A stretch of 64,000 nucleotides of DNA from Patescibacteria group bacterium (GTDB lineage: Bacteria; Patescibacteriota; Minisyncoccia; UBA6257; GWB1-50-10), in assembly GCA_023474215.1 (NCBI GenBank), contig JAMCYI010000006.1, forward strand, positions 65,452-129,451, written 5' to 3'. Positions within the stretch are counted from its first letter, which is position 1; each line of letters starts with the position of its first letter. The position numbers and the translations under genes are program-made. This document shows, in pieces, positions 47,731-53,910 of this stretch. Under the pieces are notes generated by a model. It had not been told where the DNA came from. It made no database searches and was given only the letters and a program-made list of their open reading frames with translations.

Positions 47731-49017
47731 TTACACGCTTTGCTCCAACAATCGGTCGGCGGTTTTCTTCCACCTCGACAGCGGTTCGTGAGTAAAAACC
47801 GCGATTGCTTTCTGAGTGGAATATCCGGCTTTCTTTAATTTCCCGAAACTTTCGATCCCTTCCTTGAGAAGCTTATGATATTCGGTAACATACACCTCCC
47901 CTATATCCTTATCGAGCAGTTTTTTAAAATCCTCCGAGCTCTTTCCTAATTTACCCGGCAATTCATCGTACACCCATCGTTCCGTCGCAAGACGTACCTG
48001 GTCGTTAAAATATTCGTAAAGCCCTCCCATTGCTTCCGACTTCGTCAGCGACGAGTAAATCTTTTGAGGATCTACTCCCTCAGCGCAATAAGCTAAGATT
48101 TCATTCGACGCTTGATAATCAATATCCTGTCGACTGAATCTGAGAAAGTGCTTCAGGGCAAGTTCTTTCTCCTCGTCGGTTCTCGCATGCTCAAGCCTTC
48201 CATCAATCAGAACTCTTTCGATTTTTTTACTAAAGAATGCCCACAAAGCATGTTGTTCTTCATGTTTTTGAGTACCCTTTGAATTGATGTATTCCTTTAC
48301 CGCAAATCCCCGCCAGCCTGATTTTTCGGCGATGATCGCCCCCTCTAAGTCGGGAATAAGTGAAGTGCTCACATGTGCGCCTCCGCTCCTGTCCGCGTTT
48401 TCCCGATCCGATGGTTGAATGTCTTCTTTCCCTTTCTTCAAAAATTTCTGGCTGCAAATGCGGGTGTAATCGTCCAGATTCTCGCACCGTACATAGAGTG
48501 TCACCGGCCCCTCGATAATTTCAACCTTCCCTTCGGGATCCCCGCCGAACAAGACCTTGAACAGCTCGCGGTCTTTGGGATATCGCTGCCGGATTTCCCT
48601 GACCTTTGCGTGCCTGAATTCGTAGAGATCCATAAGCAACTCCGACATTTCTTCCTGGTCTTGAGTCATGCCGTATCGCGATCCGAATTCCTTGATCGAC
48701 CGCAGGAGATCGTCCTTCGGTATATCGGGGTTTTTCTCGATTACGGCGATGGCGGCGGCCTGAACCGCCGCAAGGCCCTCAATGCGCCTCTTCAGTTTTT
48801 CCTTGAATCTACCGACCAATAACTCCCGGTATTCCTTGGGAGCATCTTTGATGTTCTGCAGCTCGGCGGTTATCTTGACCGCTTCCTCGTCATACATCGG
48901 AAAGATTTCCTCAGTACTTTTTTCCCACGCGATCTCGCCCCGCATGGCCTTTTCAACCGCAGTCTCGAGCGGACCTTCAATTTTTGGTTGTTGAAAAGAT
49001 ATTTTCTCCGGATTCAT
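47731..49017 (-). CDS. hypothetical protein (AT-richer islet), HExxH motif
   Basis: 428 aa and acidic. It starts MNPEKIS... and contains KHEEQHALWAFF. No family recognised. Confidence 0.5.
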   Translation of the reverse strand: MNPEKISFQQPKIEGPLETAVEKAMRGEIAWEKSTEEIFPMYDEEAVKITAELQNIKDAPKEYRELLVGRFKEKLKRRIEGLAAVQAAAIAVIEKNPDIPKDDLLRSIKEFGSRYGMTQDQEEMSELLMDLYEFRHAKVREIRQRYPKDRELFKVLFGGDPEGKVEIIEGPVTLYVRCENLDDYTRICSQKFLKKGKEDIQPSDRENADRSGGAHVSTSLIPDLEGAIIAEKSGWRGFAVKEYINSKGTQKHEEQHALWAFFSKKIERVLIDGRLEHARTDEEKELALKHFLRFSRQDIDYQASNEILAYCAEGVDPQKIYSSLTKSEAMGGLYEYFNDQVRLATERWVYDELPGKLGKSSEDFKKLLDKDIGEVYVTEYHKLLKEGIESFGKLKKAGYSTQKAIAVFTHEPLSRWKKTADRLLEQSV

Positions 49018-51217: not shown

Positions 51218-51292
51218 GTCCGACTGGCGGTTGTGGTATGACTAGAGGAGAACTTTTACTGATTTTGCAACGAACTAAAACCGGAGGTGTGT

Positions 51293-51952
51293 ATGGCAAT
51301 GCTTGCGGGACTTCTCTTGCTTTTCATCGTTCCCGGCAATCACGGAGCAACACATAAGTCCGACAGTACGGTCATTGAGGGGGTATATCAAGTCCAAATC
51401 ACCGAACTTCCCGATGTTCCGAAATTCCTCTCGGGATTCTTCGGCAAAGTGGCTCAATTTCTCGATCTTGCCCCCGATAAGTTAGACTACCGCGAAACGG
51501 TGCTTGGCCAACCGGAAACAGATGATTTTCGGATCGAACTCAAAGACCAAACGGGCCGGCAGTGGATCCATTTTTCCTCGGACACTGCGCTGTCATCCTT
51601 CATTGACCCGCCGGAATTCCGTACCGGTACGCTCCCGAAGGCCAAGCTGAAACCCGACGCTATTCGCTTCATTGTTGGCATCCGCGATTTCTTCATACGA
51701 GATCGGGGCTCTTTCTTCCACGGCCGATTCGTGCTGTGGGGTGATACAGTCGATTTCTATTCGACCCGGGATTCGCTTCGGCCGCTCCTCTATCGGTTCT
51801 CAAGTTTCAATCGAAAAGGCAAGCTTGTCATGAAAGGAGTGGTCTTGCGTGGCAGTCGCGATGGATTTGTCATCTATCCCTGGACCAGCCTTTACTTGTA
51901 CAAAGAAGAAACTGGGCTCATCTTGGAATTAAAGAGTCTCGAAATTAAGTAA
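51293..51952 (+). CDS. secreted hypothetical protein
   Basis: GGAGG lies upstream of ATGGCAATG. The signal peptide MAMLAGLLLLFIVPGNHG is followed by a ~200-aa domain of unknown function. A strong terminator follows. Confidence 0.5.
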   Translation: MAMLAGLLLLFIVPGNHGATHKSDSTVIEGVYQVQITELPDVPKFLSGFFGKVAQFLDLAPDKLDYRETVLGQPETDDFRIELKDQTGRQWIHFSSDTALSSFIDPPEFRTGTLPKAKLKPDAIRFIVGIRDFFIRDRGSFFHGRFVLWGDTVDFYSTRDSLRPLLYRFSSFNRKGKLVMKGVVLRGSRDGFVIYPWTSLYLYKEETGLILELKSLEIK

Positions 51953-52064: not shown

Positions 52065-53267
52065 CTATTTTATAAGAACCTTGCGGTCTCGGTACTTTTT
52101 GCTTTCGAGGTCCTTCACATATCGTGTGTATGCCTCCTCGATTCTTTTGGCTTCCACGGGCATTATTTTCGCCATTTCCTGGAGATTATGTCTCCCACTT
52201 TTCGCTTCGGAGAGAACCTTCAGGAGTTCGTTATAACAACCCGCTTTCGTCATGATACTCACGGTGGCTGGATAGGTTTTTATAAATTCTTCCACGGAAA
52301 GATTCTTGTCTTCAACGAAGTTTTTCCAGTCATTTCTTAGTCGATGAGTTTCGTCGGTATACTTTTCCAGCTCCCAGGCATCTTCTTTTTTCCATTCAGG
52401 GTTTATCTCTTTCAGTGTTATTTCTCCTTTCCTATCTGCAGGAAGATACTTACTTAAAAATTCTTCGATGGGTATGTAGCCAACGGCCACTTCATACGGC
52501 GGCTTCCCCGTTTTCATGAACTCGTCGAACCGGCTCTTGCTGATATTCCCATTTTGGTCAATGAATTGCGACCACAGACCGTTGCCGTTGAACTGATTTT
52601 CAAGCGTCTTCACTTTTTTGAACCCGAGCCGTTCCGCGGCGGGAAGGGAAAGAAGCCATGATTCGCCGATGATTCCCCGCGCTTCGGGATATTTTTGGGG
52701 AATCATTTCGGCAAGTTTGGTAAACGATGCACCGATCTCGGTGAGTAGCGATTTTTCCGGACCGCTTTCATAAAAAGCAGGGAAATGAATTGCTAAAAAT
52801 TCCTCTTCTGGACCGAATCCTGCTTCCTCCATACGGCGGTTTTCATGCGTCCCCGACTCCGTTCTAATGACTCCGATCGTCGTATCATTTTCCGTCATCC
52901 TTTCGATTTCGGTTGGTTCCTCCTTTTTAAGATTGGCGTAGACGTCGAAGACATACTGGGTTATCAACTCCTCTCTCTTTTCTCGATCCGGCGTTTCCCG
53001 ATATATCCTATTTATTTCGTTCTCAATGGAAGTGGCAAAAGCTAACTTTTTGTCCGCCTCTTCACCTTCATGAACGTTTCGATATCTGTCCCGGAGACGT
53101 CTCATGATGGGGGTATATTCGTAAAGGACGTGGCTGAAATTCCCCTCACCCCTATAGTACGAATCGGCAAAATGGACTTCGAGAGCGGTTAAACGCTTTG
53201 CAAGTTCTGCTTCGCGATCTGCCTGGTTTTCTGTTTCTATGGATTGGGTTATCCGCTCTGGATTCAT
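52065..53267 (-). CDS. hypothetical protein (AT-richer islet), possible GNAT-like segment
   Basis: About 400 aa. The start was set at MNPERITQ (the track starts 6 codons earlier). Acidic. The segment ARGIIGESWLLSLPAAERLGFKKV weakly resembles the GNAT motif. It lies upstream of the intron-containing tRNA. Confidence 0.45.
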   Translation of the reverse strand: MNPERITQSIETENQADREAELAKRLTALEVHFADSYYRGEGNFSHVLYEYTPIMRRLRDRYRNVHEGEEADKKLAFATSIENEINRIYRETPDREKREELITQYVFDVYANLKKEEPTEIERMTENDTTIGVIRTESGTHENRRMEEAGFGPEEEFLAIHFPAFYESGPEKSLLTEIGASFTKLAEMIPQKYPEARGIIGESWLLSLPAAERLGFKKVKTLENQFNGNGLWSQFIDQNGNISKSRFDEFMKTGKPPYEVAVGYIPIEEFLSKYLPADRKGEITLKEINPEWKKEDAWELEKYTDETHRLRNDWKNFVEDKNLSVEEFIKTYPATVSIMTKAGCYNELLKVLSEAKSGRHNLQEMAKIMPVEAKRIEEAYTRYVKDLESKKYRDRKVLIK

Positions 53268-53427
53268 GCCCTCATTCTCAACCATCCGGGGGCATTTTTC
53301 AACCTCAAGTTATAGAATCGCCAGTTCGATTTCCTAACGGGGCATCCCGCTCCACGTCCTAGCGGGGTGTATGAGCAAGGTAGCAAAAATCAGGCCTTCT
53401 CGGTCCGCACGATAAAAAATACCTCAG

Positions 53428-53691
53428 CTCCGCGGGCAGGACTCGAACCTGCAACCATCTCCTTACAGTTCTCCTTCTGTTACCAAAAGGTCTGGACTAT
53501 CTCATGTCCCCGGGGGGGGACTCGGGTATATAGTCTCTACACATTTATCCCGCCGTTCCCAGCGAAAATTTAGCTCGGGATTGTCCGCCTGCCGGCGGAG
53601 TTCCCCGAATTAGCCCGATTTTCATTCATGCATTGCTGCATGAAGCTGCCTTACTTGACAGGGAGCCGCTCTACCATTGAGCTACCGCGGA
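53428..53691 (-). tRNA. tRNA-Asn(GUU) interrupted by a group I intron in the anticodon loop
   Basis: The 5' exon is UCCGCGGUAGCUCAAUGGUAGAGCGGCUCCCUGU and the 3' exon is UAAGGAGAUGGUUGCAGGUUCGAGUCCUGCCCGCGGAG. The acceptor stem has 7 perfect pairs (U1:A72, G73). The spliced anticodon loop is CUGUUAA, and the T-loop is UUCGAGU. The CCA end is not encoded. Confidence 0.7.
53466..53657 (-). other. group I self-splicing intron (tRNA-type, about 192 nt) inserted between anticodon-loop positions 35 and 36
   Basis: P1 is formed by exon CUGU pairing with the internal guide GCAG 9 nt into the intron, with U.G at the splice site. The intron ends with G. The conserved core elements are present in the correct order: P AAUUCGGGGAA, Q AAUCCCGAGC, R UAGAGACUA, S GAUAGUCC. 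Confidence 0.7.
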
Positions 53692-53785
53692 GCTGAAGTA
53701 TCTTTCACAAAACAACTGAAGTGCATTATAAGTTGCATTTCTCTTCTTTTCAAGTATAAAATAGGATGAGATAAGTTTCCGGAAA

Positions 53786-53858
53786 GCCCCTATAGCTCAG
53801 TTGGTAGAGCACCTGCCTTTTAAGCAGTGGGTCGCAGGTTCGAATCCTGCTGGGGGCA
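53786..53858 (+). tRNA. tRNA-Lys(UUU)
   Basis: GCCCCUA-UA-GCUC-AGUUGGUA-GAGC-A-CCUGC-CUUUUAA-GCAGU-GGGUC-GCAGG-UUCGAAU-CCUGC-UGGGGGC-A. It is near-identical in the D and T arms to canonical bacterial tRNA-Lys, with discriminator A73. Confidence 0.85.
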
Positions 53859-53910
53859 CAAACGAGAATTTTTAATTTCCAATTTTTAATTTTTAAACAT
53901 AGAATGGGGG

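Follow-up and report, generated by a model that had tools for sequence, protein, structure and literature searches.

The classes of bacterial tRNA gene known to be interrupted by group I introns were four in the classical view, and they have since risen to 21 according to a recent survey (Williams 2020, bioRxiv 10.1101/2020.01.27.920355). The tRNA-Asn class of that survey is cited by Nakagawa et al. (2026, mSystems, PMC13011429) as ‘Asn.4Ug’, which the program tFind sometimes calls ‘Thr.2Ug’. The same authors counted 28 insertions between tRNA positions 35 and 36 in 4,934 complete genomes, of which 19 were in Patescibacteria and the remainder in Cyanobacteriota, Nitrospirota, Bacillota_A, Bipolaricaulota and Pseudomonadota; in the 95 complete Patescibacteria genomes the 35/36 introns lie in 15 Asn(GUU) and three Asp(GUC) genes (PMC13011429). 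Patescibacteria introns of both kinds self-splice precisely in vitro, and replacement of their terminal guanosine (omega-G) by C blocks exon ligation (PMC13011429). In the two Patescibacteria genomes from which the splicing assays were made the intron-bearing gene is the sole genomic copy, HNH homing endonucleases are reported in Asn 35/36 introns, and both ARAGORN and tFind often miscall the 35/36 introns as Thr(UGU) or Ala(UGC) genes interrupted at 33/34 (PMC13011429). Here, we analyze a 64,000-nucleotide stretch of a Patescibacteria genome (assembly GCA_023474215.1, contig JAMCYI010000006.1, positions 65,452 to 129,451; hereafter the window) and propose with high confidence, from its sequence, that it contains a tRNA-Asn(GUU) gene split at 35/36 by a compact, self-splicing group I intron of 192 nt.

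This locus has an experimentally studied counterpart in the Asn 35/36 intron of GCA_016700035.1, which self-splices in vitro and resembles the window intron in its host tRNA, its site, its U(-1) and omega-G ends, its GCAG guide, its phylum and even its miscall as Thr(UGU) at 33/34. The core motifs of the Patescibacteria Asn introns are homologous to those of the window (GCAGCUUC-P2-GAAAA..AAUUCnGGGAA..AAUCCnGAGC..GnAGAGACUA..GAGAUAGUCC); however, the GCA_016700035.1 intron is longer (234 nt), it has a P7.1/P7.2 region that the window intron lacks, and the aligned identity of the two is 52%. The window gene adds one more case to a feature that was already described and validated by experiment, in the phylum where this is commonest. 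A preliminary description of the locus, made from the sequence alone, had considered it uncommon and perhaps undescribed, an opinion that is contradicted by the ‘Asn.4Ug’ class of Williams (2020), by the 15 tRNA genes and the in vitro splicing of Nakagawa et al. (2026), and by the 120 or more loci recovered in our own scan.

The introns of the Azoarcus pre-tRNA-Ile and of the cyanobacterial tRNA-Leu and tRNA-fMet genes, which form subgroup IC3, also resemble the window intron: they are about 200 nt long, interrupt the anticodon loop of a bacterial tRNA, have no P5abc and carry GNRA loops on P2 and P9. The motif GUGUAGAGACUA is another common trait of the window and Azoarcus introns (see also the IC3 rows of Table S5 of Nakagawa et al.). 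But the IC3 introns occupy other sites (33/34, 34/35 and 36/37) in other host tRNAs and belong to another lineage. An assignment of the window intron to IC3, on the grounds of its small size and Azoarcus-like motifs, was rejected, its homologues being published as IA; Nakagawa et al. (PMC13011429) place the Asn and Asp 35/36 introns in subgroup IA and not in IC.

A tRNA-Asn gene divided between positions 35 and 36

The gene lies on the minus strand, as do all of the intron elements described below, and it consists of a 34-nt exon, the 192-nt intron and a 38-nt exon. Exon 1 (53691..53658, tRNA positions 1-35; UCCGCGG-UA-GCUC-AAUGGUA-GAGC-G-GCUCC-CUGU) provides the 5' strand of the acceptor stem, the D arm, the 5' strand of the anticodon stem and the loop segment CUGU that ends in U35. 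The group I intron (53657..53466) contains no open reading frame (ORF) and is documented by a match to the Rfam model RF00028, by a mapped junction and by the z-score of its fold; it begins with CAAGUAAG-GCAG and ends with AACUG, its last base, omega-G, being at 53466. Exon 2 (53465..53428, positions 36-73; UAA-GGAGA-UGGUU-GCAGG-UUCGAGU-CCUGC-CCGCGGA-G) provides U36, A37 and A38, the 3' strand of the anticodon stem, the variable loop, the T arm, the 3' strand of the acceptor stem and the discriminator G73. The exon halves, an intron of about 192 nt, the guide and the intron-final G had all been noted within 53428-53691 by the preliminary description, and every one of them is present. CCA is not encoded, since the DNA past the 3' end of the gene runs on as ...GGAG-CUGAGG.

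Joining of the exons gives the anticodon loop CUGUUAA, divided between positions 35 and 36, and ARAGORN identifies the 73-nt spliced sequence as tRNA-Asn(gtt). Because the sequence reads ...CUGU|C...CUG|UAAGG, two registers of the junction each yield a 7-nt loop; only the 35/36 register, however, fits the rules of group I introns (an exon-final U, a U-G wobble with the guide and an intron-final G), and it is the sole solution for the window in an in-silico splicing mapper. The acceptor pair U1-A72, together with the discriminator G73, is the bacterial tRNA-Asn pattern, and U1-A72 is found in all 108 bacterial-labelled intron-bearing members of the family among the matches listed. In Escherichia coli tRNA-Asn, G73 and the anticodon are elements of Asn identity.

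The decisive and independent check of the 35/36 junction is a scan of metagenome contigs for the predicted spliced junction GGCTCCCTGTTAAGGAGATGG, which gave at least 120 matches. Five of the matches listed (L141, L147, L148, L169 and L190) contain an uninterrupted gene that agrees at 72 of 72 positions with the predicted product of splicing; ARAGORN calls each of these genes tRNA-Asn(gtt), and one of them scores 70.0 bits on the Rfam tRNA model. Both the identity of the tRNA and the site of the insertion, as these had been read from the DNA at the outset, are upheld by these uninterrupted genes and by the ARAGORN result on the spliced sequence. Another locus, L164, is syntenic with the window, with the same gene order and orientation and a class II ribonucleotide reductase of 72% protein identity, and its tRNA-Asn gene is uninterrupted at the homologous place. 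Among relatives, therefore, the intron can be either present or absent at a homologous site.

It had also been anticipated that standard tRNA finders would overlook this gene, and they do: ARAGORN with default settings reports only a tRNA-Lys gene, and in its intron mode it miscalls the tRNA-Asn gene as Thr(UGU) interrupted at 33/34. On the family loci among the matches listed, the intron mode reports no gene in about 40% and miscalls others as Thr, Asp or Tyr. The only tRNA-Asn gene of the window is missed by default finders and labelled Thr by intron-aware ones; such a loss would wrongly lower the estimated completeness of the metagenome-assembled genome (MAG) and make an essential tRNA seem absent, a point that was already in print in 2026, as was the lesson that genes of this kind need a check of the junction against intronless homologues.

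The catalytic core of the window intron

The preliminary description had claimed a complete group I core, and the comparison with RF00028 confirms it: the match extends from 53671 to 53473 over the full length of the model (model positions 1-253), and its score of 63.3 bits (E = 1.1e-13) exceeds the gathering score of 50. A degenerate pattern of the core has a single match in the window and none in 100 shuffles. Five further assemblies of this species contain the RF00028 match as well.

The helices of the window intron were derived by hand and projected onto a structure-blind MAFFT alignment of 113 intron cores from the family described in the next section. All helices of the P4-P6 and P3-P7-P8-P9 domains, including the P3/P7 pseudoknot, could be located in the window, and all of the nucleotides that are invariant in the family are present in its intron. 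Standard pairs fill 85.6% of the alignment cells, as against 69.5% in column shuffles (none of 500 attains the observed figure) and 31-49% after a slide of the partners by 1-3 columns; the covariation score is 0.454, as against 0.144 in shuffles. Changes on both sides of a pair are abundant in P2, P8, P9 and P9.0. Folded on its own, the intron gives a minimum free energy (MFE) structure that contains P2, P4, P5, P6a, P8 and P9 (z = -4.70); none of the shuffled sequences folds as well.

P1 (53646..53661) is formed between the exon segment CUGU (53661-53658) and the guide GCAG (53649-53646), which enclose a loop of 8 nt. The guide occupies intron positions 9-12, G9 forming the wobble with exon U35 at the 5' splice site, and it recurs in 113 of 113 aligned introns, although GCAG was itself fixed by the search pattern. 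A longer P1 taken from the cmscan alignment (GGCUCCCUG with AAGGCAGCU) was rejected for its two mismatches and its lack of a U-G wobble at the splice site. P2 (53625..53644) is a hairpin with a GNRA loop, UUCAUGCA-GCAA-UGCAUGAA, in which five pairs show two-sided changes within the family. The 5' strand of P3, UCGGG (53614..53618), pairs with CCCGA (53522..53526), which follows the GACUAU of P7 by 3 nt; P3 is 99.1% paired and has compensatory changes at all five of its pairs.

The P4-P5 domain (53575..53608) comprises P4, in which UCGGGG (53608-53603) pairs with UCCCGA (53580-53575), and P5, UCCGCC-GGCA-GGCGGA (53599-53584), without a P5abc extension; the MFE fold agrees. P4 is formed by the P element AAUUCGGGGAA and the Q element AAUCCCGAGC and is 100% paired. 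Most of its pairs are invariant, in part because they were fixed by the search pattern, and are therefore uninformative; the one position that the pattern left free has A-U in 69 sequences, G-C in the other 44 and no mispair. P6 (GC with GU) and the P6a hairpin, UUUCGCUG-GGAA-CGGCGGGA, together span 53541..53574; the closing P6 pairs are invariant, and P6a, which is variable in length across the family, appears in the MFE fold. The P6 pairing proposed by cmscan did not fit the window and was rejected in favor of the two invariant closing pairs and the MFE-supported P6a.

The alignment and its pair counts identify P7, whose 5' strand GACUAU (53530..53535) lies within the conserved R element GUAGAGACUA and whose 3' strand AUAGUC (53495..53500) is the S element; the pairing of GUAGAGACUAU (R) with AGAUAGUCC (S) constitutes the helix, and four of its pairs are essentially invariant in the 113 sequences. 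From what is generally known of group I introns, we take P7 to be the guanosine-binding helix. P8, GUCCCC-CCCC-GGGGAC (53506..53521), also agrees with the MFE fold, and five of its six pairs change on both sides. P9.0 and P9 occupy 53467..53493: in P9.0, which is located just upstream of omega-G 53466, AG (53493-53492) pairs with CU (53468-53467), and P9 is CCUUUUG-GUAA-CAGAAGG (53490-53473). Compensatory changes occur at both P9.0 pairs and at six of the seven P9 pairs. The P-, Q-, R- and S-like elements that had been named from the letters alone are real, the first two forming P4 and the last two P7. The test that had been proposed along with them spoke of a P3/P7 pairing ‘between the Q/R elements’, a wording that has to be corrected, as P pairs with Q and R with S; the slip leaves the observation intact.

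The top of P8 is a run of eight C (GUCCCCCCCCGGGGAC, 53510-53517), where relatives have ordinary loops. The run is equally long in each of the six independent assemblies, which speaks against an artefact of assembly. In the alignment, the intergenic DNA of the contigs L001, L004 and L005 does not differ from that of the window, and the strain variants L002 and L003 have three differences in the intron, all of them in loops: two in the P1 loop and one in L2, where GCAA becomes GUAA and the GNRA character is kept.

A tRNA-Asn intron lineage, its compact form and its hosts

From the motifs common to the window and the published Asn introns, we built a family pattern, GCAGCTTC N{14,44} AATTCNGGGAA N{10,40} AATCCNGAGC, which matches at least 120 loci in GTDB species-representative genomes. 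The counts in this and the next paragraph refer to the matches listed. Their record titles include Patescibacteria, Nitrospirota, Acidobacteriota, Elusimicrobia, Omnitrophota, Aminicenantes, ‘Deltaproteobacteria’, Stahlbacteria, Binatia, Methylomirabilota, Planctomycetes, Gemmatimonadota and others, so that the lineage is far wider in MAGs than the complete-genome survey had indicated. The loci were screened by in-silico splicing, with an exon ending in TGT, a tRNA of 71-77 nt and a search of 600 nt upstream; a looser screen of 90 nt upstream was dropped, as ARAGORN accepts odd cloverleaves and large P1-loop insertions were missed. A tRNA-Asn(GUU) gene split at 35/36 was found in 113 of 121 loci, the remainder being cut by the ends of the locus, and the lineage is therefore specific to tRNA-Asn. 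The median intron length is 272 nt (range 179-596 nt), and the window intron is among the two shortest of the 114 that were mapped. Its closest intron-bearing relatives among the matches listed are MAGs of Patescibacteria (L029) and of Candidatus Yanofskybacteria (L052), whose tRNAs are 97% identical to that of the window and whose intron cores are 73-75% identical; no synteny with the window was seen within the 8-kb loci of these two. In a crude neighbor-joining tree (172 columns, no bootstrap), the window groups with L029, L052 and L098, followed by three Omnitrophota copies and then by a set that includes archaeal-labelled copies.

A P1-loop insertion of more than 250 nt is present in 40 of the 114 copies, and 34 of these 40 hold an ORF of at least 60 amino acids. 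Insertions of about 300-340 nt (for example in L014, L016, L027, L047, L075, L098 and L120) occur in bacterial and archaeal hosts alike. When three P1-loop ORFs of about 100 amino acids were compared with Pfam, one matched the HNH families PF01844 and PF13391 above the cut-offs, one matched PF01844 below the cut-off and one had no match; a C-terminal CxxLCANCHRE motif is common to the P1-loop ORFs. These ORFs fit a mobile lineage, and they fit the HNH homing endonucleases of Nakagawa et al. Two of the listed loci are oddities of another sort. On a 7.3-Mb contig of a Candidatus Vecturithrix MAG (L094:4787-5383), two family cores occur on one strand with about 110 nt between them and about 350 nt between their starts, in what looks like a tandem duplication of an intron-bearing tRNA-Asn gene. 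A MAG titled ‘Klebsiella pneumoniae’ (L053, CAMBFS010000088.1) contains a 265-nt Asn 35/36 intron of the family; most probably the bin is mislabelled or contaminated and the gene is not from Klebsiella.

Most members of the family have two extra hairpins between P7 and the 3' strand of P3 (alignment columns ~234-323 of the 113 cores), which correspond to P7.1 and P7.2, the defining elements of subgroup IA. The window intron and about 15 other members are without them, and P7 is followed by the P3 3' strand after three nt. Nakagawa et al. (PMC13011429) classify the Nitrospirota Asn 35/36 introns as IA1 and nearly all Patescibacteria tRNA introns as IA. By sequence homology, the window intron is a member of the Asn/Asp 35/36 lineage, of which it is structurally a reduced form.

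The same architecture is found in the tRNA-Asp(GUC) 35/36 introns of two Microgenomatia (GCA_001029755.1 and GCA_030583725.1), in which P7 likewise runs straight into the P3 3' strand (GAGACUAUAUACC). The signatures CUAAUUC and GAGCUAAAU...UAAAUGUG are common to these introns and the window, as are the GCAG guide and the 35/36 site. The compact Asp introns are 196 and 184 nt long and have 62-68% aligned identity to the window intron, the figure for that of GCA_001029755.1, which self-splices in vitro, being 62%. The host tRNA differs, Asp in the Microgenomatia and Asn in the window; however, the Asn and Asp exons both end in CUGU, and one guide sequence therefore fits both hosts. With the window copy, the compact form, which had been published for tRNA-Asp, is now seen in tRNA-Asn as well. 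We tentatively assign the window intron to a minimal Asn/Asp 35/36 sub-lineage with a core of about 170-190 nt and no P7.1/P7.2, whose next relatives beyond Patescibacteria and Omnitrophota may include six introns in tRNA-Asn genes of archaeal type.

These six, which belong to the same Asn 35/36 lineage, are found among the matches listed on MAG contigs labelled as DPANN (Pacearchaeota, Woesearchaeota and Nanoarchaeota), and their cores lie at L009:1990-2176, L027:102-294, L047:2771-2956, L063:1059-1240, L082:5601-5773 and L113:5495-5681. Their tRNA-Asn exons have G1 and C72-G73, the archaeal pattern, in contrast to the U1-A72 of the 108 bacterial-labelled copies. The 9-kb contig of L027 encodes MCM (E = 2e-209), a TATA-box-binding protein (E = 5e-61) and arCOG04150, the KH-domain protein that is universal in archaea (150 bits, cut-off 114), and an arCOG04150-like gene adjoins the tRNA in L009. 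To our knowledge, archaeal tRNA genes are otherwise thought to use only bulge-helix-bulge introns that are spliced by proteins. In the literature that we searched there was no report of a group I intron in archaeal tRNA-Asn genes: the 39 archaeal group I introns of Nawrocki et al. (2018, PMC6125680) are all in rRNA genes, and one Pacearchaeota tRNA case is dismissed as mis-binning by Williams (2020, bioRxiv 10.1101/2020.01.27.920355). The exon pattern and the gene content suggest that the DPANN copies could be genuine archaeal tRNA genes with a self-splicing intron. If so, group I introns would exist in archaeal tRNA genes, and the HNH endonuclease would be their likely vehicle between episymbionts with common habitats.

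Predicted splicing, persistence and genomic setting

The events that would lead from this gene to a functional tRNA can be proposed as follows. Transcription would probably start from a promoter-like sequence, TTGAAA-17 nt-TATAAT (53725..53753, minus strand), which has 11 of 12 consensus matches and whose -10 hexamer stops 34 nt short of the 5' end of the tRNA; three such sites occur in the region against 0.6 expected from shuffles, and a promoter function is suggested by the consensus match alone. The intron would then fold into its P1-P9 core, the last four exon bases CUGU pairing with the guide GCAG so that the U35-G wobble marks the 5' splice site. A free guanosine held in P7 would attack this site, after which P9.0, of 2 bp, would present omega-G (the terminal G192), and this would take over the G site. 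The freed 3'-OH of U35 would attack after G192 and thereby join the exons into the loop CUGUUAA; RNase P, 3' trimming and CCA addition would complete the tRNA. The exons, the junction, the group I membership and the helices are established computationally. Guanosine-dependent self-splicing at 35/36 has been demonstrated in vitro for homologues; catalysis by the window copy is inferred, as are its use of the promoter and its end-processing steps.

The lineage of the window intron is mobile and specific to tRNA-Asn, and many of its copies have an HNH homing endonuclease in the P1 loop. No such ORF is present in the 192 nt of the window intron, which leave no room for one, and because of this the window copy is probably stranded and vertically inherited. 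Its persistence without an endonuclease might instead mean that it splices but is kept for regulation, coupling the supply of tRNA-Asn to GTP, Mg2+ or the growth state, and is not a neutral selfish remnant. This idea was raised by Nakagawa et al. for the genome-reduced Patescibacteria, about 40% of whose genomes carry group I introns (PMC13011429). We consider it unlikely: nothing in the sequence requires a regulatory role, endonuclease-free introns are also expected to persist through slow neutral loss, and the intron is dispensable since close relatives, including the syntenic one, do without it.

Several properties of the locus weigh against an active, self-splicing intron. P1 has only 4 bp, and no convincing P10 pairing of the 3' exon UAAGG with the guide region was seen by eye in either the window or the Nitrospirota copies. 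P7.1 and P7.2, the extra helices by which subgroup IA is recognized, are absent, and the analogy from which activity of the window copy is argued is with the compact Asp intron, not with a compact Asn intron. In the anticodon stem there is a G27-A43 mismatch, albeit one that is common to the uninterrupted genes with 72/72 identity. An alternative would be a decayed relic, an intron that no longer splices in a dead tRNA gene, with a functional tRNA-Asn encoded elsewhere in the genome; the near-minimal length of the intron, its loss of the two hairpins that most relatives have, its lack of an ORF and the restriction of the tRNA-Asn search to the window would all be compatible with decay. We judge this to be quite improbable. 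Every core helix is intact and all of the family-invariant nucleotides are in place, the exons are identical to uninterrupted genes that look alive, the strain variants have altered loop bases only, and a near-consensus promoter lies upstream. Moreover, a compact intron of like architecture splices in vitro, and in the two Patescibacteria genomes of the splicing assays the interrupted gene is the only copy.

A tRNA-Thr(UGU) gene with its intron at 33/34, the junction being shifted by 2 nt, is the output of ARAGORN run with -i (tRNA-Thr(tgt), intron of 192 nt, ‘tccct-Intron-tgtaa’), and it too has a 7-nt loop, CUUGUAA, but we dismiss it as having virtually no chance of being correct: the intron would begin with GUCAAG and end in C instead of G, the exon end CCCU would form no U-G wobble with the GCAG guide, the U1-A72 pair and G73 are the bacterial tRNA-Asn signature whereas bacterial tRNA-Thr has G1-C72, and the five uninterrupted genes match the Asn junction. 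An identical Thr miscall was disproved by sequencing of the spliced product (Nakagawa et al., Table 1 and Fig. 3, PMC13011429). The tRNA-Asn gene with an intron at 35/36 is the interpretation that we retain.

Around this gene, the window encodes FtsZ, FtsA, a class II ribonucleotide reductase, FolB and an ABC transporter, and the NCBI label of the FtsZ, FtsA and ribonucleotide reductase proteins is ‘[Patescibacteria group bacterium]’. Directly downstream of the tRNA-Asn gene is an ORF of 406 amino acids (52065-53285, minus strand), and an identical protein is encoded on at least 12 contigs, including one of assembly GCA_027423645.1, which is not named in the part of the supplement of Nakagawa et al. 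(2026) that was searched. Neither this ORF nor two others, at 47731-49017 (minus strand, 428 amino acids) and 51287-51952 (plus strand, 221 amino acids), has a Pfam match at E <= 0.001. The only other Rfam match in the 64-kb window is a tRNA-Lys(UUU) gene (53786-53858, plus strand), which is divergent from the tRNA-Asn gene. The loci L002 and L003 are nearly identical to the window across these two tRNA genes, the aligned segment stopping just past the tRNA-Lys 3' end, yet immediately beyond that end (~53860-53900) they are unrelated to L001 and L004. Their gene positions are also offset by about 137 nt relative to L001, and the disposition of these sequences suggests a recombination or indel breakpoint beside the tRNA-Lys gene.

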